From assembly GCA_009015555.1 (NCBI GenBank), contig GCA_009015555.1_3613.1: a stretch of 64,000 nt of DNA, one strand, 5' to 3'. The position numbers and the translations under genes are program-made. The stretch comes from a phage. Below the pieces are notes generated by a model. It was given only the letters and a program-made list of their open reading frames with translations, was not told where the DNA came from and did no database searches. Below, piece by piece: positions 4,577-63,200 of the stretch. The number at the start of each line of letters is the position of its first letter. Position 1 is the stretch's first letter.

Positions 4577-5659
4577 TTACAGAATGTTCGCCAGCGTTTT
4601 CTTCATCGCTGCCTTCTCACGAACGTTCTGGCGGTCACGGGCACAAGACCCGCATTCCTGACAACGGTACACCTTAAATTTGGACAGGAAGGTGTGGGCA
4701 GATTTGCCTTTTTCTTCCACCAAGTCGTCGGAACCGCAGCGTACACATCGCATCACAGACTGATCCGGGTGGAACAGGGCAATGTTAGGGTGCTTACGCA
4801 TAAACGGACGAACGGTCAGGTACAGTTCTTCCAATGTCGGGATATCCCCGATGTTGTACTCTTCCATTTCGTCGAATGCCGTAGGATCACCTTCCACACA
4901 GCGACGCCACAGACCGAATCCTTCGTGAGACAACTTACGGCTGTCCAGTTCGAAGTAGTTACACGCCGCTTCCAGTGCATTGGAAGGCAGAGAGAACGAC
5001 TCCTTCAGTGCCGCCAGTGTGTCGATCGTGATATATGGGCTTGGCGGTTGCATACCGTAATATGCGAAACGCTGGTTGGCCCAACCACGGTCGAAACGGG
5101 CGTTGTGTGCAATGAAGATATCACACTCGTCAAGGACTTGCCAGAGATCCTGAATCAGTTTTTTATCCGACTGATGATCCCGTTTGAACTCTTCCGGGTA
5201 GTCGGTCAGTTTACGACTGAAGATGGACGGGTTGTGCAGCCACTTCCCGGCGAACGTCAGCATGTACGGCTCTTGAATAACCTGCTTCGGCGCGATGAAT
5301 TGCTTGAAGCGACCAAACGAATAGGCGATGCTCGGAGAGGTCTCGACATCACCAAGGAACACTTTGGCACCCGGGTTATTTTCCTTCACCTTTTCGATGA
5401 AGGTTTTCTGGATCTCTGCCAGCGTTTTACCACCATTGACTTCCTGCTGCATAAAATCAGCGTACTCATCTGGTGTTGGGATACTGTCAATCAATTGTTG
5501 GACAGTTTCCAGATTACGTGCTTCCAGTTCACGCTTCAGCATGTTGCGTACAGTTGACTCTTGAGATTCCTTGCCCAGTTGACGGGCTACCTCGCGCTGG
5601 GACAACCCACCCTTCATCAGAGCCATAACCTGTTCAACAGTAAAAGTCACATTAGCCAA
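4577..5659 (-). CDS. DEDDy-type 3'-5' exonuclease with N-terminal HTH-like region and C-terminal Cys4 ribbon
   Basis: Exo I DVET, Exo II HNARFD, Exo III YNIGD motifs in order; C-terminal CVRCG...CQECG. Confidence 0.68.
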   Translation of the reverse strand: MANVTFTVEQVMALMKGGLSQREVARQLGKESQESTVRNMLKRELEARNLETVQQLIDSIPTPDEYADFMQQEVNGGKTLAEIQKTFIEKVKENNPGAKVFLGDVETSPSIAYSFGRFKQFIAPKQVIQEPYMLTFAGKWLHNPSIFSRKLTDYPEEFKRDHQSDKKLIQDLWQVLDECDIFIAHNARFDRGWANQRFAYYGMQPPSPYITIDTLAALKESFSLPSNALEAACNYFELDSRKLSHEGFGLWRRCVEGDPTAFDEMEEYNIGDIPTLEELYLTVRPFMRKHPNIALFHPDQSVMRCVRCGSDDLVEEKGKSAHTFLSKFKVYRCQECGSCARDRQNVREKAAMKKTLANIL

Positions 5660-9069: not shown

Positions 9070-9576
9070 TTAAAACGCATCACCAAAGTCCTCTTCTTCC
9101 TTGACGGGGCGCTTGAACTTAAAGTCCGGCCCCATGTACTCACTCAGGTAGTCGATATTAAGCGACCACTCCTGCTGGCTGCGCTGCCGCCATGTGGCAA
9201 ACTCACTTTTCAGATAAGCAATGGCCTGATCACGAGTGATCCCATTAACCTTCATGAATTGCTTGATCGCCCTTTCGAGTTTCCCGTTCTTCTCGGCGAG
9301 GCCCGGATGGTGGAACTCATGGCACGGCGGACACAGGCTCATGAGGCCGACCAGTTTAACCTCTCCATTTTCGAATGTCCAGCTTTCATGACACTCAACC
9401 GGATGTTTTCTTCCGTTTCCACCCTGCCCACCACAGATCTGGCAGGTGTAGTTGTGCTCGGCATAGCACTTCCGGCGCACCTTATCCCACCCGGTCTGGG
9501 TGAGGTAAGAACGGAGGTTGTTGTCCCACGCCGTTTGTGGGATCAGGCAGATTTTATGCTTAATCTTTGAAGTCAT
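9070..9576 (-). CDS. Cys/His-rich putative zinc-binding protein
   Basis: CQICGG...HPVECHE...CPPCHEFHH cluster; start taken at MTSKIKHK. Confidence 0.42.
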   Translation of the reverse strand: MTSKIKHKICLIPQTAWDNNLRSYLTQTGWDKVRRKCYAEHNYTCQICGGQGGNGRKHPVECHESWTFENGEVKLVGLMSLCPPCHEFHHPGLAEKNGKLERAIKQFMKVNGITRDQAIAYLKSEFATWRQRSQQEWSLNIDYLSEYMGPDFKFKRPVKEEEDFGDAF

Positions 9577-10111
9577 TACGCACCCTCTCATACCCGCCGC
9601 AGCGGTCAATCAGGGCGTCCGTCGCCCGGTCCCACGCCTTGCCCAAGAGGTTCATCCCCAACCAGTTGGCCTCGTCGTCAATCATCGGGTGGTCTTGGCT
9701 CAGGCCGACACCCCAGATACGATCCCGGTCAGAAGCCTCAACAAAACTCCGGCCCGCAAGTCGGTGCTGGATCGCCTCGCAGCGGAGGCCGAGGTCAAAC
9801 ACCAGACGGCAGTAACAGACATTCTCGACGATCTGCTCTCGGGACTTCTCCCACAGTTCGTTGTTGAACCCCTTTACCTTACGACCAAGCATCTTGGCTT
9901 CCTGCGGGTGGAATACCTCTGTGATCTGCCGGGCGATATTGTGATCGGCAAACAGCATGGCCTTTTCGTACATCATCATGTGCTCCCCGGTGTAGAACTT
10001 AACACCTTCCTGCTCATGTCGCGGCAGAGCGAAAGCCCTGTCGTTTCGGTAATGATTACTGAACATGTCCTTCCACGAATAGAAGAACACGTGCTTGTCG
10101 GTCACCCTCAT
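9560..10111 (-). CDS. NADAR (YbiA-like, DUF1768) domain protein
   Basis: GEHMMMYEKAMLF...IWGVGL pattern characteristic of NADAR/YbiA family from memory. Confidence 0.65.
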   Translation of the reverse strand: MRVTDKHVFFYSWKDMFSNHYRNDRAFALPRHEQEGVKFYTGEHMMMYEKAMLFADHNIARQITEVFHPQEAKMLGRKVKGFNNELWEKSREQIVENVCYCRLVFDLGLRCEAIQHRLAGRSFVEASDRDRIWGVGLSQDHPMIDDEANWLGMNLLGKAWDRATDALIDRCGGYERVRNDFKD

Positions 10112-10320
10112 ACGCAGAACTCCCCTGCCAGTCGGTTGTACTTTTCCCGGAAGAACTCAAGGCGGACCTCCAGGTCGTCGATATGGTCCGCAGCCTGAAT
10201 CATCTGGTCATACGGATCTCCGTCGCAGTTCTCCTGACTCGCAAGGTCCCGCAGGACCGTCTGAATCGGGAACATGCCGTTTTTAATTGGATGGATCACT
10301 TTCATCGGCGGCTTCCCCAC
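10108..10320 (-). CDS. hypothetical protein (70 aa)
   Basis: ORF, tandem with neighbours. Confidence 0.4.
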   Translation of the reverse strand: MGKPPMKVIHPIKNGMFPIQTVLRDLASQENCDGDPYDQMIQAADHIDDLEVRLEFFREKYNRLAGEFCV

Positions 10321-10517
10321 TCGGTGGAGATCAGGAAGGCCATAGCCACGGCAAATACCAACTCAACCATCAATGTGACATTGATCACTGTCTCCAGTTC
10401 ACGACCGTAAATACCGTTCAGGTTGAAAGTCGTTAACCCCACAATCGCCGGGGTGGCGAAAAGGATCAGTACGCCGATAACAACATAGCCGATCAAGAAT
10501 TTAACCAAACTGTTCAT
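10302..10517 (-). CDS. small membrane protein
   Basis: Hydrophobic stretch LIGYVVIGVLILFATPAIVGL; start trimmed to MNSLVKF to remove overlap. Confidence 0.4.
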   Translation of the reverse strand: MNSLVKFLIGYVVIGVLILFATPAIVGLTTFNLNGIYGRELETVINVTLMVELVFAVAMAFLISTEWGSRR

Positions 10518-55813: not shown

Positions 55814-56329
55814 ATGCGTATGAATAACTTCAAACACTACAACCCGAAGGCGAAAGCCTTCGGGGACGGTGTTCAATATTTTTCTGATGACAAGGGCCGT
55901 GATTTTTACGAGAGTCTCGGCCTGTTTACCAAGAAATATGCGGTCCTTTTCGATGAGTTCGGAATGGTCCGCTTCTTGGTCAAGTCTGTGGATATTTCTA
56001 TGACTTATCCATTGGGCCTGTCTATTTCTGACCTGAACAGCATCCCAAAGGACTTCGACATCATGAAGGGGCCTTGGATGTTCGATGGGAAGAAAATTAC
56101 CAAGGTGGACTTCGACTTGGCTATCGGAACTGCCAAGCGTAAGAAAGCCATCATGGGGTCTCTGTCCAGCCAGATCACACCATTGGCTGATGCAGTGGGA
56201 CTGGGTGAAGCAACAGAAGAGGAGATTGAGAAATATAATGCTCTTCTGAAACTTCGTGTTAAGCTAAATCGGATCTCTGATGACACTCCCGCGAGTGAAA
56301 TTGATTGGTCTGAGTTCACCGCTGCATAA
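55814..56329 (+). CDS. hypothetical protein, possible tail fibre assembly (171 aa)
   Basis: Position immediately after fibre gene. Confidence 0.38.
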   Translation: MRMNNFKHYNPKAKAFGDGVQYFSDDKGRDFYESLGLFTKKYAVLFDEFGMVRFLVKSVDISMTYPLGLSISDLNSIPKDFDIMKGPWMFDGKKITKVDFDLAIGTAKRKKAIMGSLSSQITPLADAVGLGEATEEEIEKYNALLKLRVKLNRISDDTPASEIDWSEFTAA

Positions 56330-56370
56330 CCTTTCAGGCCGGGTATTTGCCCGGCCCCAGGAGAACACAC

Positions 56371-56709
56371 ATGGCTCTTGATATTATGTTGATTCTGAAG
56401 TCTCTTTGGGGTTTGGTGACTTTCCTTCTGTTGGGGGTACTCAAAATCTTTTATTCCGACTTCAAGAAAATGCAGGAGAAGCAGGACGCTCTTGAAAAAG
56501 ATCTGATTCGGCTTCGTGGTGAGATGGTCAGCAAAGATAGTATTGATGACATCCTGGATCGTAAGATCAAGCATATCACCGACACTATTGGCGACATTCG
56601 TGCCGACATCACTGACATGCGGAAAGAGGCCAAAGAAGAGACTAACGCTCTTCAGAAGGACATCCGCTCCGTACTTAACGTCATGTTGGAGAGTCGTCGC
56701 AACAAATGA
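56371..56709 (+). CDS. small membrane protein with coiled-coil C-terminus
   Basis: RBS AGGAGA; N-terminal TM LILKSLWGLVTFLLLGVLKIF. Confidence 0.45.
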   Translation: MALDIMLILKSLWGLVTFLLLGVLKIFYSDFKKMQEKQDALEKDLIRLRGEMVSKDSIDDILDRKIKHITDTIGDIRADITDMRKEAKEETNALQKDIRSVLNVMLESRRNK

Positions 56710-57164
56710 TCACGTCCATTATTTTTGGACTCTGCTTCGTCATCCTGGCAACTCGCCCGGATGCCGGGGCCAAGATTATGGCGGGGCTTGGCCTCGCCTA
56801 TCTTGTTCTCGAAAACCTGATGTTTTGGTTTTTCAGCGGGGCCGAGTTCTTCGACATCACGCTGTACTTTACCACAGCTTGGGCATTGGATTCAATACTT
56901 TTATTTGCCGTGGCACTCTTTGTCCGAGGGTATCGTCAGGTCGCTGTTTTGGCGCTGGCCCTGCCTCTGATGCTGGTACAAGTATTCGCAATCCAATATC
57001 CAATCTTATTCCCCGATTGGGTTTATTCCTTCGCCGTACAGGATGCACACAGGTATTTCATCGAGGTGTTTATCTTCGTCTATTCCTGGAAGGACAATAC
57101 AGTCTCCGAGTGGCTCAGAACAGGAACCGTTCTGGCACTTGTTATTGTTGCCCATCTGGTGTGA
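56706..57164 (+). CDS. polytopic membrane protein (about 4 TM)
   Basis: Four hydrophobic segments; ATGA-coupled to upstream membrane protein. Confidence 0.5.
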   Translation: MITSIIFGLCFVILATRPDAGAKIMAGLGLAYLVLENLMFWFFSGAEFFDITLYFTTAWALDSILLFAVALFVRGYRQVAVLALALPLMLVQVFAIQYPILFPDWVYSFAVQDAHRYFIEVFIFVYSWKDNTVSEWLRTGTVLALVIVAHLV

Positions 57165-57187
57165 CGCATTGATAATGAAGGTGTTCT

Positions 57188-57451
57188 ATGCTAAAATTCT
57201 TCAAAGACCTCGTAACTTCCCCCATCGAACCTGACAAGGCTTCCCACACGAAGTTCTGGTCAAACGTGGGTATGGCGGCTATGACGGCAGTTTTCCTCTG
57301 GTACGGCTTCAACAACACCCTCCCGGAGTGGTATGTTTGGGTTTATGCACCCACAGTAGTAGCACCTCACCTTCTGAGTGACCTCATCAATCTTCGTTGG
57401 GGTATTGCCAAGAAAGAGTCGGAAGTTTCCAACAACGAAGAATCCAAATAA
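57188..57451 (+). CDS. small membrane protein (87 aa)
   Basis: Hydrophobic segment MAAMTAVFLWYGF, charged C-terminus. Confidence 0.42.
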   Translation: MLKFFKDLVTSPIEPDKASHTKFWSNVGMAAMTAVFLWYGFNNTLPEWYVWVYAPTVVAPHLLSDLINLRWGIAKKESEVSNNEESK

Positions 57452-57463
57452 GAGGAGATTCGC

Positions 57464-60400
57464 GTGTCATCCAATACTGATATCATTGCCCTGTTGAGCA
57501 GCGATGCTGACAAGGCAGTTGACCAGATCATCGAAGACTCCAAACGTCTTCACATCGTGGTCAACGGGACGGGCACCGAGCAGGCTGTTGCAGAGGATGG
57601 GAGCTTGCTCCCGTCTGTTCGCAAAGCGCTGATCGACAACCTGTATTTCAAAACCCCACCTCTTCCCTGGAGAAACGGTGGGTCTGTCAACGAGTTCAAC
57701 CAGCTTTACTCCTTCACCGACGTAAGCGGGAACACCACTTGGTGGTATGCGCCCGGAGCTACGGTATCAAACCCGGTTGTGATGCGTGACAGCCCGATCA
57801 ATGACGGCAAGTTCAAGGTTTTCTTGGACAAAACCAACATCGCCGATATCTATGCCCCTCTGAACTCTCCGAACTTCGTCGGTAACCCCCGTGTGCCTAC
57901 CCCGGCCCCTGGCGACAACAGCCAAACCGTCCCGACAACCGGGTGGGTTCAGTCAGAGATGCAGGACCTGGAAGACCAGATCATTGCCTCTATGAAGGGT
58001 GATTTCGAAAACATCACCGTCCGTAACGATGCCGTTCTCAAAGACACGTATATCAGCGGTGAGTTCATTGTCACCAGTGATAAGTTGTCCGCTGCCAGCG
58101 CCGAAGCAACCTTCCGTCGTATTCGTGTGGTCGGCACCGCAGACAATACTGAGATCGCTTTTGAGCAGAACACCGCACCTCCAGCGGGGGCGAGCACAAA
58201 GACTAACATCAAGCCGTACACGATGTCAACAGGCATCTTGACGATTGACCAGTTGAAAGGAAAATCTGCCCAGATTGGTGATGTTGCTGTTGCCACGGAC
58301 TCCCTGAATGTCGATGGGTACATGCGTGGGGATTACCTGCATCTGGAAGGTAACAACCGAAACAGCACAACCCGCCCTCAGTTGATCGTTGATGGTATTG
58401 CAGAGATCAATACGCTGCGGGTGACTGGAACCATCGAGGGTGTAAAAGCTGATGTTGATGGCTTGGATATTCATCCTCGTAGTGTTATCATCGACGAAGG
58501 TTTGACGGTTGGCAAAGATACCTCCCTGACAGGAAAGCTGACTGTCGGCGGTACAACCAAGGTGAATAACCTGGAGGTTACTGGAACCCTGTCTGGTGTT
58601 GCTATCAGTGTTGACGGTAAAGACATCAAGCCCCGCTCTGTTAACACCGGGAACTTGGTTGCTACTGGCAACGTGCAGATCAGTGGGACGACCACTGCAA
58701 CCGGGAAGATCACAACTCAAGATCTTGAAGTGCTTGGCACACTGACAGCTAACCTCGACCTGTCCGGGTCGGATCTGAGTGTTGATAATATCAACGTTGC
58801 AGAAACCGCGACAATAAAGGATTTGGTGGTTACCGGAAAAACAACCGGGGTCAAAGGTGACGTTGATGGAACCTTGATCAAGCCTTCTTCTGTTCAGGCA
58901 ACGGGCCTTGTGTCAGCAGGTTCATTGTCTACCAATGCAAATGCCTCTATCGGGGGTAACCTGACGGTGACTGGAGAGTTCCGTCCCGCCAGCATGGAAA
59001 CAGGTGCAGTTGAGGCAGATAGTCTGGTTGTTAATGGTAACATTTCCCAGACGACAGGAACAACCTCTGTAGTCAACCTGGTTGTCACAGGAACGACAAC
59101 TGGCGTAACAGCCGATGTCAATGGTGACGACATTTTGCCTCGCTCCGTGACTACTACTGCGGGGGTTAAAGTCGGAACCACCCTCGACGTAACTGGAAAG
59201 ACTACCCTCGGAGATGTTGATTTCACTGGGGTTGTTACCGGGCTTGAACTTGATCTTTCTCAAAAGAACGTGACAGTTAAGTCAATTGCTGCTGTAGATC
59301 CTTCTGCATTTGGGGATGTGACGACAGATAATCTGACCAACAGCGAGAAGATCATCACTCAAGACATCCAAGTTCTGGGTGATATTCTGGATGCTGCGGG
59401 GAATCCTGTCAACACCTTTGATGTTACAGGCAAAGATATTCTGCCAAACAGTGTTCAATCTGCGACGTTTATTCGCGGAAAAACTCTGGACATCAGTGAC
59501 GGTTCCACCCTCCGTGGCCCTGTCGAGTTCCGTAACGGGCTGACAGTAACTCTTGGAGACATCATGTCGCCCCAAGGGAAGGCAACGTTCAACGATGTAC
59601 AGGTCAATGGTGCATTGACGGACGCTAACGGCAACGTCATCGGCTCCGTTGAAAGCATCAAGGGCAAGGACATTGAACCACGCTCCGTTGTGGCTACCGT
59701 GTCTGTACAGGCCCCTCGTCTCCAATCAACTGGGGATATTTTGGGCCAGAGCGCGACAATCACCAATAACGTCTCTGCGGGGACCTTGGGTGTTTCCGGG
59801 TTGACAAACCTGGCAGAAACTCGTGTGAATGCGAAGCTAACAGGGCAATCCACAGAGTTCGAAACTCTGCTCCTGAAGCGCGTTGCTGGTCAAGATACAC
59901 CTCGCTTGGTTGTGCAGGGGGATTCAGATCTCCAGGGGGACCTGAACGTCTCGGGGACCATTACCGGGATTGTTGACCTGACGGCTCAAGATATCCGTAT
60001 GAACAGCCTTGTGCTCGCCGAGGATCTTTCTGCAAGGAATATTACAGGATCAGGCACGGTTCAGGGCGCTAATGGAATTTTCGGCCAGTCTTCCCAGCCC
60101 ACCACCCAGTACGGTTTGCAGTCTCTTTCCAGCGCTAAGGTAGATAAAAACCTCGATGTTGGAGGAAACTTGCGGGTAACTGGGGCCATTACCGGAAGTA
60201 TGGACTTCACAGGGAAGGATATTACCCCACGGAGTGTCGCGGCGTCAGCCGGAATCGGGGCCGTGGATATCACGGCATCCGGCACGACAACGACGAAGGA
60301 CCTTGTGGTCACCGGGACGACAAGTTTTGCGGGAGACAGCGTTTTCAATGCAGGCCAGGTTAAGTCCAAGTTGTTCACCGTTGACATTGGTACTGATATC

Positions 60401-60688
60401 ACTTCAGGATCGGGGTCTTGGATTCCAGACGGGCTTCAGTCCGTTTATAACGTGACGGTTACCGCCGATACCGTTATCGGTTCCATTGCTCAGTTGCCGG
60501 GCGCGGGGACTTACTTCTTCTATATCGAGCAGGATGCTGTTGGGGGCCACACTGTGACCTTTGACCCAGCTTACCTCAAGATTGGTGATGGAGAAGTGGC
60601 TACAGCGCCAAACGCAATCTCTCTGGTCCAAGTAATCTACCGTGGTAAAGGTTCAATCTTCGACTACGTGATTCTTAACCGAGGTTAA
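57464..60688 (+). CDS. Long tail fibre protein with internal repeated modules (GTG start)
   Basis: 1074-aa protein with repeated VTGT..GV..DVDG.DI.PRSV units; RBS GAGGAG before GTG. Confidence 0.62.
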   Translation: MSSNTDIIALLSSDADKAVDQIIEDSKRLHIVVNGTGTEQAVAEDGSLLPSVRKALIDNLYFKTPPLPWRNGGSVNEFNQLYSFTDVSGNTTWWYAPGATVSNPVVMRDSPINDGKFKVFLDKTNIADIYAPLNSPNFVGNPRVPTPAPGDNSQTVPTTGWVQSEMQDLEDQIIASMKGDFENITVRNDAVLKDTYISGEFIVTSDKLSAASAEATFRRIRVVGTADNTEIAFEQNTAPPAGASTKTNIKPYTMSTGILTIDQLKGKSAQIGDVAVATDSLNVDGYMRGDYLHLEGNNRNSTTRPQLIVDGIAEINTLRVTGTIEGVKADVDGLDIHPRSVIIDEGLTVGKDTSLTGKLTVGGTTKVNNLEVTGTLSGVAISVDGKDIKPRSVNTGNLVATGNVQISGTTTATGKITTQDLEVLGTLTANLDLSGSDLSVDNINVAETATIKDLVVTGKTTGVKGDVDGTLIKPSSVQATGLVSAGSLSTNANASIGGNLTVTGEFRPASMETGAVEADSLVVNGNISQTTGTTSVVNLVVTGTTTGVTADVNGDDILPRSVTTTAGVKVGTTLDVTGKTTLGDVDFTGVVTGLELDLSQKNVTVKSIAAVDPSAFGDVTTDNLTNSEKIITQDIQVLGDILDAAGNPVNTFDVTGKDILPNSVQSATFIRGKTLDISDGSTLRGPVEFRNGLTVTLGDIMSPQGKATFNDVQVNGALTDANGNVIGSVESIKGKDIEPRSVVATVSVQAPRLQSTGDILGQSATITNNVSAGTLGVSGLTNLAETRVNAKLTGQSTEFETLLLKRVAGQDTPRLVVQGDSDLQGDLNVSGTITGIVDLTAQDIRMNSLVLAEDLSARNITGSGTVQGANGIFGQSSQPTTQYGLQSLSSAKVDKNLDVGGNLRVTGAITGSMDFTGKDITPRSVAASAGIGAVDITASGTTTTKDLVVTGTTSFAGDSVFNAGQVKSKLFTVDIGTDITSGSGSWIPDGLQSVYNVTVTADTVIGSIAQLPGAGTYFFYIEQDAVGGHTVTFDPAYLKIGDGEVATAPNAISLVQVIYRGKGSIFDYVILNRG

Positions 60689-60690
60689 TA

Positions 60691-60716
60691 CAGCCGCCTT
60701 CGGGCGGCTTTTATTT
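60691..60716 (+). terminator. Rho-independent terminator
   Basis: agccgccttcgggcggct followed by tttatttt. Confidence 0.65.
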
Positions 60717-60726
60717 TGGAGGTATT

Positions 60727-61923
60727 ATGTTTCCTTTTGCTATTATTCCACCGTTTGTTCTTTCAGGCAAGGAAAAAATCAAGCAGTTTTCGGTTACGTC
60801 TTACGACAGTATGGTCCTGACTGATAAGGGGAACCTGTATGTTACAGGATTCAACCGGGTGGGTGAGCTTGGTGTTGGGGACACAACTAACCGAAATAAC
60901 CAATGGGTTTTGGTAATGCAGGACGTAAACTGGATTGCAAGCAACCGTGAGAAGCTGTGGGCAATTAAGAACGACGGTTCCATTTACACCCCGGATCTTC
61001 GGTCATCCAGTACAACTGCATATACTTGGCAAATCGACACGGTAGCACCTGGAAGTATTGGGGATTTGTCTGGGGATAATATCAAGGAGATTTACAGCGA
61101 CACAGAGAGCGTATATATCCTCAAAAAGGATGGTTCACTGTGGTATCTGGGAAATAACTCTAAAGGCCAAGCTGGAAACGGGGGAACTTCCTTAACCACA
61201 CGCTTTGTGAAGGTTTCAGATGGTGTGGTATCTTGGTCATCCAGTGGACCCACTGTTGTTTTCGTGAAAACAGACGGATACTTCTGGGGCTGCGGATCAA
61301 ATTCCCGAAATATCATTTCCTCTGCTGGCAGCAGTATCACAACCCCTACCCGGATGTTTAGCACCACCCACGCTGACGGAGGTGTTGTAACAGATTACAC
61401 GCTGGCCTCTGACCAAGCGTTTTTGATCAGATATAGTAATGGTAAATATCGTACCAAAGGTCTCAATATCGGACAACTTCCTTCAGGGGATGCAAGTCCA
61501 TACAATACCCTTACGGACGTTCCTGACGGATACACCCCCGGTGATGGAACGGAGCCTCTGGTAAGCAAAACAGGAGGGGTGTCGGCCTCTGGAACTTGGC
61601 CTAACTATAGTGGTCTTTTCTTCTACCATACGGGAGGGAAATTCATAGTCACTGGTCAAGCAAGCGGGAGAATTTCCGGGACCAGCCAAACCAGCGGTAC
61701 ACTCTCAAACTGGACCAATGTCGATGCGGCAAGTGACGAGATCCCATCTATCAAGGGAATGACCTTCGGACTGGGTTGGGTTGCTGCCTACAACGATACG
61801 CAGATTCTGTACTGGGGGTATACGGGAAACTCCTCTGCATATCCGGTTGTGGGATACCTAATGCCCGGACCTTCAAGGCTTGAATATGTGGCACGTTTTG
61901 CAACCCCGCCGATCGAGGCATAA
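60727..61923 (+). CDS. RCC1-like repeat (beta-propeller) protein
   Basis: Recurrent G.N..GQ.G.G / LG.G units (GFNRVGELGVGD, GNNSKGQAGNGG, GLNIGQLPSG). Confidence 0.5.
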   Translation: MFPFAIIPPFVLSGKEKIKQFSVTSYDSMVLTDKGNLYVTGFNRVGELGVGDTTNRNNQWVLVMQDVNWIASNREKLWAIKNDGSIYTPDLRSSSTTAYTWQIDTVAPGSIGDLSGDNIKEIYSDTESVYILKKDGSLWYLGNNSKGQAGNGGTSLTTRFVKVSDGVVSWSSSGPTVVFVKTDGYFWGCGSNSRNIISSAGSSITTPTRMFSTTHADGGVVTDYTLASDQAFLIRYSNGKYRTKGLNIGQLPSGDASPYNTLTDVPDGYTPGDGTEPLVSKTGGVSASGTWPNYSGLFFYHTGGKFIVTGQASGRISGTSQTSGTLSNWTNVDAASDEIPSIKGMTFGLGWVAAYNDTQILYWGYTGNSSAYPVVGYLMPGPSRLEYVARFATPPIEA

Positions 61924-61926
61924 TAA

Positions 61927-61955
61927 AAAGGCACCCTAACGGGTGCCTTTCTTTT
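61927..61955. terminator. Bidirectional terminator between convergent genes
   Basis: aaggcaccc-taac-gggtgcctt hairpin flanked by A-run upstream and T-run downstream. Confidence 0.6.
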
Positions 61956-61967
61956 TATCATGACAAC

Positions 61968-63200
61968 TTAGAAGGGGATGTCATCGTCGAAATCAACTTC
62001 CGGCGGAGTCATGTCGATATGACCGTTGCTGCTTGTCGCAGGAGTCGATTGTAGAGTCTCCGGTTTAGGGTCCACCTTAGGGTCAGGCTGGGACTGTGCA
62101 GTTTGTGCCACAGAGCCACCAGAACTTTGCTCACCCTTGACGTATGCAGATACGCCCGGGACAACCTCGCTCATGAGACCACGAGCATAAGCCAACAGCT
62201 TACCAGTGATCTCTTCTGGATTGTCGTTCTCACCAACCTGGATATCACGGGTGGCGTTCAGAACAGCATGGCCCACCATCGCACCCAGATCGTAATCAGA
62301 CATACCCTTGTTAGCCGGATCATTTGCAGCGTCCAGCTTCAGATGTTTGGTGACATCATGAACAACCTTGGCTACTTCCACCACCGGAGGGATAGTCAGA
62401 CCGCTACGACGCAGGTTCAGGGCACCGTTCAGTGCATGGCCCGTTTCCATACCGGAGTTGTCCTTCTTGAAACCACCTTTGGAACCGCCCGCACCTGCAC
62501 CAGCAGAACCTTTTGGACCGTAGGCTTTGAAACCTGACAATGTACCATCCTCAGCACGTTGCCCTGCCAGGCGACCACCCACCTGAACTTGGGCGATCTG
62601 CTCTTTGTTCAGAACCACAGAGACTTCATTACCGTTCTCATCCTTCACCACAGCGCCTGTATCGCTCAGGGAGAGGATTTCTCCGTAAACCTTAGTGGTT
62701 TTGCCACCTGGGGCGTTGGACGACGCAGAGGACGTCTGAGAGCCTCCTGCATTGCCTGCCGGGGCGGCATCACGGGCACCGGATTTGTCGGTAATAACGA
62801 TCTTGGATTTCTTACCCTCCGGGGCAGAGCGTTCGTTGCCGTCACTATCAGTCCACTTACGGATCTGGACAGGAACACGAATTGCCATACCCGGCTTCAG
62901 GTCAACCCATACTTCGCCTTCTTTTACCTGATACTGGCTTTCGTATTTCATGTTCTTCACTTCGTGAGTTCCGAAGCTGATCCACACCTGATCTTCACCG
63001 TTTTTAACCAGCAGAGATGCACGGTGAGTGGCAACGATAGTCTTACCCTTGTTCGGACCCTTGTTAATGGGGGTAATTTTCGGACTGCCGTCCTCGTTGA
63101 TGCGTTTAATGTTGATACGTTCGATAGTACCAACAGCCAGGCTTACCGTAGAGTTGTCGATCGGGTTAACTACTTCGGTAATTACTTTAACATCAGACAT
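61968..63200 (-). CDS. SSB-like protein with C-terminal DFDDDIPF tip motif (410 aa)
   Basis: C-terminus ...PPEVDFDDDIPF matches the acidic tip of bacterial SSB from memory; long Gly/Ala/Ser-rich linker; RBS AAGGAG. Confidence 0.5.
   Translation of the reverse strand: MSDVKVITEVVNPIDNSTVSLAVGTIERINIKRINEDGSPKITPINKGPNKGKTIVATHRASLLVKNGEDQVWISFGTHEVKNMKYESQYQVKEGEVWVDLKPGMAIRVPVQIRKWTDSDGNERSAPEGKKSKIVITDKSGARDAAPAGNAGGSQTSSASSNAPGGKTTKVYGEILSLSDTGAVVKDENGNEVSVVLNKEQIAQVQVGGRLAGQRAEDGTLSGFKAYGPKGSAGAGAGGSKGGFKKDNSGMETGHALNGALNLRRSGLTIPPVVEVAKVVHDVTKHLKLDAANDPANKGMSDYDLGAMVGHAVLNATRDIQVGENDNPEEITGKLLAYARGLMSEVVPGVSAYVKGEQSSGGSVAQTAQSQPDPKVDPKPETLQSTPATSSNGHIDMTPPEVDFDDDIPF

Follow-up and report, generated by a model that had tools for sequence, protein, structure and literature searches.

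Genomic context of the propeller gene

The window analyzed here, a 64,000-nucleotide stretch of phage DNA (GenBank assembly GCA_009015555.1, contig GCA_009015555.1_3613.1), was assigned to Certrevirus (Vequintavirinae) and was 98.8% identical to Cronobacter phage PBES 02 over the region considered. An open reading frame (ORF) predicted to encode an RCC1-like beta-propeller was found directly behind the long tail fibre gene and ahead of an intrinsic terminator that folds on both strands (Table 1), which is where a sequence-only reading of this DNA had placed it. ORFs in this position are referred to as slot-mates of the fibre. The propeller is probably a distal module, or tip adhesin, docked on the tip of the long tail fibre in the virion.

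The fibre gene was orthologous to that of the phiTE long fibre gp241 (PDB 9cuy chain g, "putative tail fiber protein"; E = 0), and its N-terminal baseplate anchor was kept across the Vequintavirinae, with matches in 397 phage records (tblastn, amino acids [aa] 1 to 299). The PBES 02 orthologue of the propeller, ADU18_0141 (YP_009189002.1), was 99% identical over 398 aa and occupied the same place behind the fibre gene. RefSeq lists it as "regulator of chromosome condensation" and UniProt (A0A0K1YAC0) as "DNA condensation protein"; the two are essentially one gene in sister isolates. Gene and family are thus already catalogued, members of the family having been identified by virion proteomics. 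An identical protein (100%) is listed under the name "hypothetical protein F9047_11090 [Escherichia coli]," apparently from a complete phage genome deposited within a bacterial assembly.

The fibre and propeller genes were separated by a terminator-like hairpin that the sequence-only reading did not mention (60692 to 60709, -14.3 kcal/mol, z = -3.1). The terminator that closes the module was flanked 5' by an A-run and 3' by a T-run (-17.5 kcal/mol on the plus strand and -20.6 on the minus strand; z = -6.0 and -6.8, respectively), and the PVP-SE1 annotation gives the equivalent site as a rho-independent terminator acting in both directions.

Table 1. Features of the fibre/propeller locus, in window coordinates
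Feature	Position	Strand	Remarks
Long tail fibre gene, 1074 aa	57464..60688	+	Directly upstream of the propeller gene; phrog_4549, E = 0
Variable 3' part of fibre gene	60046..60688	+	Left half of the swapped cassette
Fibre tip ("head") domain, conserved fold	60356-60685	+	Last ~110 aa of the fibre; ends ...LVQVIYRGKGSIFDYVILNRG
Terminator-like hairpin	60692..60717	+	AGCCGCC-TTCG-GGCGGCT plus T-run; between fibre stop codon and propeller ribosome-binding site
Ribosome-binding site GGAGG	60718-60722	+	4 nt ahead of the ATG at 60727
Propeller ORF	60727..61923	+	ATG start, 398 aa, 42.7 kDa, isoelectric point (pI) 5.5; slot-mate of the fibre
N-terminal tag MFPFAIIPPF	60727..60756	+	Proposed docking peptide; M1, P3, F4, P8, and P9 invariant in the family
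Blade-1 RCC1 signature GFNRVGELGVG	60847..60879 (aa 41-51)	+	Nearly invariant in the family
Most variable loop of the family, blade 2	60991..61050 (aa 89-108)	+	Candidate ligand-contact loop; column entropy of alignment A1 vs. model secondary structure
Blade-3 RCC1 signature GNNSKGQAGNG	61150..61182 (aa 142-152)	+	
Bidirectional intrinsic terminator	61927..61950	Both	Separates the propeller gene from the convergent gene 61968..63200; right-hand boundary of the cassette

Fold of the predicted propeller

RCC1-like domains were defined by Pfam entries PF00415, PF13540, and PF25390 and InterPro entry IPR009091, with a blade unit of ~50 to 60 aa carrying the signature G-x-N-x-x-G-Q-L-G. The recurring RCC1-like units and the beta-propeller fold that had been proposed from the sequence alone were both borne out. 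The propeller scored 29.9 bits against Pfam RCC1_2 (cut-off, 22), which identifies the repeat units, and it matched phrog_4219 ("regulator of chromosome condensation") at full length (residues 1 to 397, 313.7 bits, E = 5.7e-93). PDB sequence matches were to RPGR, UVR8, HERC1, and HERC2 (best E = 8e-13). The RCC1-like domain PF25390 matched residues 14 to 251 (E = 7.9e-17), and the score of 62.1 bits fell short of the whole-domain gathering cut-off of 150; the C-terminal blades have diverged too far to be captured by the sequence model, the curated threshold is strict, and the fold call is unaffected. In addition to the blade-1 and blade-3 signatures, degenerate copies of the motif were found in blades 4 to 7, at aa 190 to 201, 245 to 254, 309 to 319, and 364 to 373.

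An AlphaFold2 model built with 39 homologues was all-beta with seven strand groups (predicted local distance difference test [pLDDT], 88.5; predicted template modeling score [pTM], 0.90). Foldseek aligned ~400 columns of this model to the seven-bladed UVR8, RCC1, and HERC2 (E = 3e-20 to 1e-14), with ~397 columns aligned to UVR8 (template modeling score, 0.66 to 0.73; E = 3e-20), and the top 40 PDB matches were all RCC1-type. By this model, the product of 60727..61923 is a complete, stand-alone seven-bladed RCC1-like beta-propeller, which is probably monomeric. Outside the most variable loop of the family (Table 1), sequence variation was greatest at aa 155 to 162, 199 to 205, and 279 to 286. 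These stretches and the blade-2 loop lie at comparable points in successive blades (2 to 5-6) and mostly correspond to the long loop preceding the outer strand, so they could share one face and contact the host.

The eukaryotic RCC1, UVR8, RPGR, and RCC1-like domains of HERC2 share the seven-bladed fold and the blade signature with the phage propeller. The phage protein differs from them in its low identity (14 to 16%), in the degeneracy of blades 2 and 5 to 7, and in two features specific to the phage family, the N-terminal tag and a long invariant insert at aa ~231 to 278. To our knowledge, bacteria have no Ran, nucleosomes, or chromatin partner. Ran guanine-nucleotide exchange and chromatin binding are unlikely to apply, and the RCC1 name does not transfer function; the "chromosome condensation" or "DNA condensation" label is not supported by the evidence presented here.

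RCC1-like folds had been described in the sequence-only reading as uncommon in phage tail modules, a claim that did not hold up. Proteins with this fold were found in the same slot in several genera and in arrays in jumbo phages; three PHROG families carry it, and in the Pseudomonas phages PollyC and Littlefix, an RCC1-like propeller is fused into tail fibre proteins. A family-profile search of 1.84 billion representatives returned 39,552 matches, mostly to giant multi-RCC1 proteins, among which one representative (P0007) alone covers the propeller's phage family.

Exchange of the fibre tip and propeller as one cassette

Comparison with phage CR3 located two boundaries around the fibre tip and the propeller. 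DNA identity of 97.6% ended at 60045, ~214 codons before the fibre stop codon, and returned (95%) at 61921, the propeller stop codon. Fibre aa 1 to 840 were ~100% identical to those of CR3, and identity per 40 aa fell from 100% to between 27 and 57% past aa ~840. The last 110 aa of the fibre were 39% identical, and the propeller was about 28% identical to the CR3 slot-mate in a forced global alignment. Metagenomic relatives of the propeller with 48 to 83% identity were all encoded directly behind the same fibre type.

Two classes of tip and slot-mate were distinguished. In class A, the type found in the window, the fibre tip ends ...VIYRGKG..FDYV.L.RG and is followed by a phrog_4219 protein starting MFPFAIIPPFV. 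In class B (CR3, CB7, and LTH01), the tip ends ...LVYRG.G..IDVF.T.R and is followed by a phrog_15692 protein starting M[IY]PF[AP]II.F.GG. At the class A/B switch, each tip type was always matched with its own slot-mate type across 10 loci. Pairwise identities at these loci were also compared by Mantel tests. Identity of the propeller was strongly correlated with that of the fibre tip (last 110 aa; r = 0.94, P = 2e-4) and was not significantly correlated with that of the fibre N-terminus (first 300 aa; r = -0.05, P = 0.53) or of the adjacent convergent gene (r = 0.15, P = 0.29). On these comparisons of sequence, the propeller and the last ~110 to 215 fibre residues pass between genomes as one two-gene cassette.

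Class B slot-mates (CB7_37, phiTE_242, CR3 gp034, and W70_106, all phrog_15692) occupied the same slot behind an orthologous fibre, with the same tag, hairpin, and terminator, and are also predicted to be RCC1-type propellers. They differ in representing another allele class, about 28% identical to the window propeller and paired with another fibre-tip class (39% identical). CR3 gp034 matched phrog_15692 (E = 5e-208) and, over its full length, phrog_4219 (E = 1e-15). An alignment of profiles (hhalign, A1 against the CB7_37 family) extended over 250 columns from residue 1 (90.6% probability, E = 1.3e-6). Unlike the window propeller, CB7_37 was not recognized by the standard Pfam RCC1 models; its structural model was of moderate confidence (pLDDT, 66; pTM, 0.72) and matched RCC1-type propellers only. 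No further RCC1-like or CB7_37-like ORF was detected within the window by hmmsearch.

Conserved architecture and N-terminal tag of slot-mates

The same order of elements was found at all 15 fibre/slot-mate loci compared: the fibre stop codon, a GC-rich hairpin with a T-rich stretch behind it, a GGAG-type ribosome-binding site, and a gene whose product starts M-[F/I/Y/L]-P-[F/I]-[A/P]. The tag was common to slot-mates from five genera of myoviruses. These loci spanned Certrevirus classes A and B, POP15, the W70-like LTH01, Seunavirus PVP-SE1, Vequintavirus HeinrichReichert, Phapecoctavirus ukendt, and Justusliebigvirus alia (the hairpin was seen in the window and in loci L002, L003, L004, L005, L008-L014, and L018-L020). 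About eight different stem sequences made up the hairpins, and the T-rich stretch was weakest in alia. The inter-gene hairpin is conserved in structure and not in sequence, and it may dampen expression of the module encoded after it.

RCC1-like slot-mates were found behind a homologous fibre in Certrevirus, LTH01, Seunavirus, and Phapecoctavirus. The bodies that follow the tag varied, and the bare propeller of ~400 aa was one type among them. Tag-headed slot-mates in sister genera carried RCC1-like and/or immunoglobulin-like (Ig-like) domains and were annotated as tail or lateral tail fibre proteins. PVP-SE1 gene 40 (604 aa) and ukendt gp231 (890 aa, "tail protein") were predicted to have an RCC1-like propeller first, followed by Ig-like (Big_2) and other domains, and the Vequintavirus protein bas58_0041 (>1,480 aa) was annotated as "lateral tail fiber protein with intimin domain." These three shared the slot, fibre tip domain, hairpin, and ribosome-binding site with the window locus and had an M-x-P-I-P start; the window protein, in contrast to the longer multidomain slot-mates of sister groups, is a bare propeller. 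The body of alia_33 consisted of Ig-like domains only. In the Pectobacterium phage POP15 (locus L009, 11553-14054), an 833-aa slot-mate with the tag MIPFPLMGG had RCC1-like regions near residues 188 to 288 and 718 to 775 and, judged by these regions, looks like a double propeller. The POP15 fibre that precedes it was annotated as "autotransporter."

In the monomer model of the window propeller, the tag was disordered (pLDDT <50 at residues 1 to 5). A signal peptide or membrane anchor was considered for this hydrophobic N-terminus and rejected, as it is proline-rich, it has no basic n-region, and its jumbo-phage counterparts (MLPFARMVKYGN) lack the hydrophobic character. As for a T4-style cleavage site after the tag, Glu16 (E16) was invariant within class A only. 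Two other window ORFs starting M-x-P-F were chance matches, one (43963-44505) being an internal fragment of the sheath gene and the other (5174-5557) having no remainder of the tag.

In one metagenome contig (L004, ERZ27241777 k141_467213, 9220-10479), an extra gene annotated as Glyco_hydro_68 (levansucrase-type) was located past the propeller gene but still within the fibre module. Its product did not carry the tag and may be an exopolysaccharide-active accessory.

Tag-headed arrays and fibre tips in jumbo phages

Tandem arrays of 3 to about 13 RCC1-like copies headed by the same tag were found in jumbo phages. Members of these arrays (121Q gp234-248, phAPEC6, Serratia BF, Erwinia Kaldavass, and Xanthomonas XaC1), as well as GAP32 gp1, resemble the window protein in being stand-alone propellers of ~370 to 390 aa (25 to 30% identical) with the same kind of tag (MLPFPII..., MFPIPII...). 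They differ from it in being multicopy and encoded away from the fibre gene, with some members having non-RCC1 bodies. Array proteins started MLPF.RM.KYGN in 121Q, MLPFP...YGN in Kaldavass, MFPIPIIS in XaC1, and MLPFPIIS in Serratia BF, and the Serratia BF array contained one gene annotated as "virion structural protein." The tag (MLPF...) also headed proteins that had no RCC1-like annotation, in 121Q (L007, 4460-5197), Serratia BF (L017, 1446-2111, 5852-6649, and 7863-8174), and Kaldavass (L015, 8366-8875), the one annotated as "virion structural protein" being among them. The only one of these that was scanned, 121Q gp243, matched phrog_4474 alone. From this distribution, the tag appears to be a portable unit that does not depend on the propeller.

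The fibre tip domain was detected in 403 phage records, jumbo phages included (tblastn, last 120 residues, 60326..60685). Jumbo-phage matches included pEa_SNUABM_49 (55%, E = 4e-24), Kaldavass (52%), XbC2 (44%), and Asteriusvirus-type coliphages such as UB, Turkey5, and ph0011; for pEa_SNUABM_49 and XbC2, evidence for RCC1-like proteins or the tag came from siblings only (other pEa_SNUABM phages and XaC1, respectively). The tip and an RCC1-like array were present in one genome in Kaldavass, UB, and Turkey5. The Kaldavass arrays map to 18 to 25 kb and its fibre tip to 247 kb; because they are >200 kb apart, physical linkage cannot account for the co-occurrence of tag and tip. The class A tip was nearer to tips of ~350-kb Erwinia jumbo phages (52 to 55%) than to the class B tips of sibling Certreviruses (35 to 39%), a similarity that points to horizontal transfer of the tip module between widely different groups of phages.

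Virion evidence and proposed role of the propeller

Published virion analyses contained several relatives of the propeller. In purified CB7 virions, CB7_37 was identified by mass spectrometry (MS) with 4 unique peptides and 19% coverage, and CB7_32, a classical Tfa, was not detected (PMC7344957). Virions of W70 contained W70_106 (phrog_15692) and the fibre W70_107, which are encoded by neighboring genes, together with three phrog_4219 proteins (W70_237 to W70_239), for which a role in DNA encapsidation was suspected from the family name (PMC11370258). GAP32 gp1 was also a virion protein (PMC5259590). Size-normalized spectral counts for W70 gave a very rough value of about 0.3 propeller-slot protein per fibre chain. 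In the RBPseg cryo-electron microscopy (cryo-EM) map of a Vequintavirus, unassigned density touches the C-terminal head of what appears to be the fibre class of the window, and the authors draw an analogy to gp38 for the fibre head of the Vequintavirinae. The Certreviruses phiTE and CR3 depend on flagella, and PBES 02-type phages carry the other cassette class. Functional studies of RCC1-type propellers, whether in fibres or in flagellotropic receptor-binding proteins, were sought in the literature, and none was found.

A receptor-binding or fibre-tip accessory role had been suggested from the sequence alone. Co-inheritance with the fibre tip, homologues in virions, and density at the fibre head made this putative role the best-supported reading. 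The docked tip adhesin would work as follows. The C-terminal head domain of the fibre would form a docking platform, or socket, into which the tag would plug, perhaps with the invariant surfaces of blade 1, blade 5, and aa 231 to 278, and contact with the tag would be made at the fibre-tip strands ...VIYRGKGSIFDYVILNRG. The variable loops of blades 2 to 5-6 would contact a structure on the host surface, and a joint swap of tip and propeller would alter host specificity. The inter-gene hairpin may keep propeller expression below that of the trimeric fibre; the ratio estimated for W70 would suit roughly one propeller per trimer.

The nearest functional parallel is gp38 of T2, T6, and S16 on the gp37 tip (and, loosely, T4 gp35 to gp37 joining the proximal gp34), a separate polypeptide that is encoded directly after the fibre gene, sits at the distal end, sets specificity, and is exchanged with the tip. 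The propeller is likewise encoded by a separate gene directly 3' of the fibre gene and is exchanged with the tip. It had no match to gp38, Caudo_TAP, or any other fibre-adhesin family in Pfam or PHROGs. The two proteins are unrelated in sequence and fold, gp38 being a polyglycine-rich sandwich and not a propeller, with a conserved domain for attachment at its N-terminus and a glycine-rich one for recognition of the receptor, and attachment is proposed here to occur through an N-terminal tag of ~10 residues. The propeller is not a homologue of gp38 or Tfa and, by analogy, at most works like a gp38-type tip adhesin.

Several observations weigh against a docked tip adhesin. Linkage alone can yield co-inheritance of adjacent DNA. 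Within class A, the propeller-tip correlation was r = 0.63 and that of the tip with the fibre N-terminus was r = 0.87, which is not clearly separable from phylogeny; the main support for a cassette is therefore the A/B switch seen between genomes that are otherwise nearly identical. The multiple-sequence alignment behind the CB7_37 model contained the window's own family (class A), which may have biased it toward a propeller. The fibre in the cryo-EM map, of RBPseg class TC8 (RBP65), is a putative homologue of the window fibre, linked to it by a domain description that fits the phiTE long fibre. The phiTE cryo-EM paper, in which the fibre was modeled at residues 14 to 171 only, makes no mention of gp242; its text contains no gp241, gp242, propeller, or RCC1. 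Finally, a conserved N-terminal tag on many unrelated bodies also resembles a capsid-targeting signal.

The first alternative is a fibre-specific assembly factor that folds or trimerizes the divergent tip, as do T4 gp38/gp57A and the Tfa proteins of lambda and Mu, and that is loosely or incidentally kept in virions without binding a receptor. The gene has the classical position of a fibre chaperone, immediately 3' of the fibre gene and co-varying with its tip, and slot-mates were substoichiometric in virion MS (4 peptides for CB7_37 versus 19 for its fibre; 115 spectra for W70_106 versus 996). Against this, the propeller had no similarity to Caudo_TAP (PF02413) or Tfa in Pfam, and the Tfa of the locus, the short-fibre chaperone, is encoded by a separate gene (55814..56329). 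CB7 virions contained the slot-mate and lacked the true Tfa. A chaperone would also be unlike the tag-headed proteins of sister genera, which are 600 to 1,880 aa long, Ig-like, and annotated as tail or fibre proteins, and unlike the jumbo-phage repertoire of up to ~13 tag-headed paralogues for what is apparently a single tip-bearing fibre. Stable extra density at the fibre head is likewise not what an assembly factor predicts, and this explanation is unlikely.

Next in plausibility, and also unlikely, is a virion protein located elsewhere, such as on the baseplate, on a third, collagen-type fibre, or on the tail, where it would bind receptors or decorate the particle independently and its linkage to the tip would be genetic only. 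MS gives no location; in W70 the three additional phrog_4219 proteins are encoded far from the fibre gene, jumbo-phage arrays do not adjoin it, and phAPEC6 has unexplained "hairy" appendages on its tail and capsid. An independent location fits poorly with the A/B pairing, which was constant in 10 loci though the inter-gene hairpin could serve recombination, with the joint occurrence of tip domain and tag in distant phage groups, and with unassigned density exactly at the C-terminal head of the fibre.

An internal head protein is very improbable. Such a protein would be packaged in the capsid either for DNA ordering or condensation or for injection as an effector, and the tag would direct it there as the targeting sequences of T4 internal proteins do. 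DNA condensation or encapsidation was proposed by the authors for both phAPEC6 and W70; for phAPEC6, which has 11 RCC1-like proteins, DNA ordering was offered as a guess and functional information was stated to be lacking (PMC7247149). A short tag common to paralogues with different bodies does resemble a targeting signal, and the tandem diversified arrays resemble arms-race effector loci. The proposal itself, however, rests on the name of the eukaryotic family only. The proteins are acidic (pI 5.5, 4.9, and 5.2) and have no basic tail, the gene is the last of the tail-fibre module and not part of the head module in five genera, and it co-varies with the fibre tip. No protease-type cleavage motif was conserved after the tag across the classes, and homologues with the tag have adhesin domains of the Ig-like type and bear tail-protein annotations.

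The least probable alternative is a nonstructural intracellular protein, for example a host-takeover factor built on a propeller scaffold and expressed late by read-through only, which would accord with RCC1-like domains being generic platforms for protein interaction and with the terminator-like hairpin that parts the gene from the fibre gene, but homologues and slot-mates occur repeatedly in purified virions and the hairpin, ribosome-binding site, and tag are tightly coupled to the fibre gene in a conserved manner.

Beyond the docked propeller of the window, the tag M-x-P-[F/I]-[P/A]-[I/L]-[I/L] and the ~90- to 110-aa head ending ...(V/T)Y.G.G..(I/V/F)D..(I/V)..R could tentatively be seen as a general plug and socket, by which interchangeable distal modules are mounted on one proximal fibre in phages ranging from the ~145-kb Vequintavirinae and Stephanstirmvirinae to ~350-kb jumbo phages. 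Among the modules would be bare RCC1-like propellers, propellers joined to Ig-like domains, and nonpropeller bodies, and the jumbo-phage arrays of 3 to 13 tag-headed paralogues would yield a multivalent or mixed fibre population.

Neighboring genes

Three small membrane-type ORFs were found at 56347..57451, between the chaperone gene and the long fibre gene. One of them corresponds to Pfam Phage_phiTE_239 in relatives, and the trio was present in the same place, an odd conserved site, in all Vequintavirinae examined, including PVP-SE1 (genes 42 to 44).

The convergent gene downstream of the terminator (61968..63200, minus strand) encodes a 410-aa protein that matched phrog_4477 ("unknown function") and had no Pfam match. 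The protein ends ...PPEVDFDDDIPF, which we take to resemble the acidic C-terminal tip of the E. coli single-stranded DNA-binding protein (SSB; MDFDDDIPF), and a long Gly/Ser/Ala/Pro-rich linker precedes this end; the protein was conserved in all relatives (rv5_gp209-like). Judging from this end and linker, the product is probably an SSB-like phage protein or an SSB-tail mimic that recruits host SSB partners.

Implications for fibre modules and host range

The pairing of tag and tip, and the resulting view that "chromosome condensation" or "DNA condensation" proteins serve as distal parts of fibres that can be exchanged, appear to be undescribed. If this view is correct, the condensation labels in many phage genomes are wrong, and the genes that bear them are modules of host range, open to prediction and engineering on the basis of sequence. 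It bears on the identity of the density at the fibre head and on the purpose of the RCC1-like arrays of jumbo phages, as well as on the assignment of genes to the different fibres of rV5-, phi92-, and phiTE-like phages, a matter called "far from clear" in the BASEL paper. It would also provide a sequence rule for host-range cassettes, in which a tip domain is followed by a hairpin and then by an M-x-P-F/I-P start, and this rule could be used to find and swap cassettes in biocontrol phages of Cronobacter, Pectobacterium, Salmonella, and E. coli.

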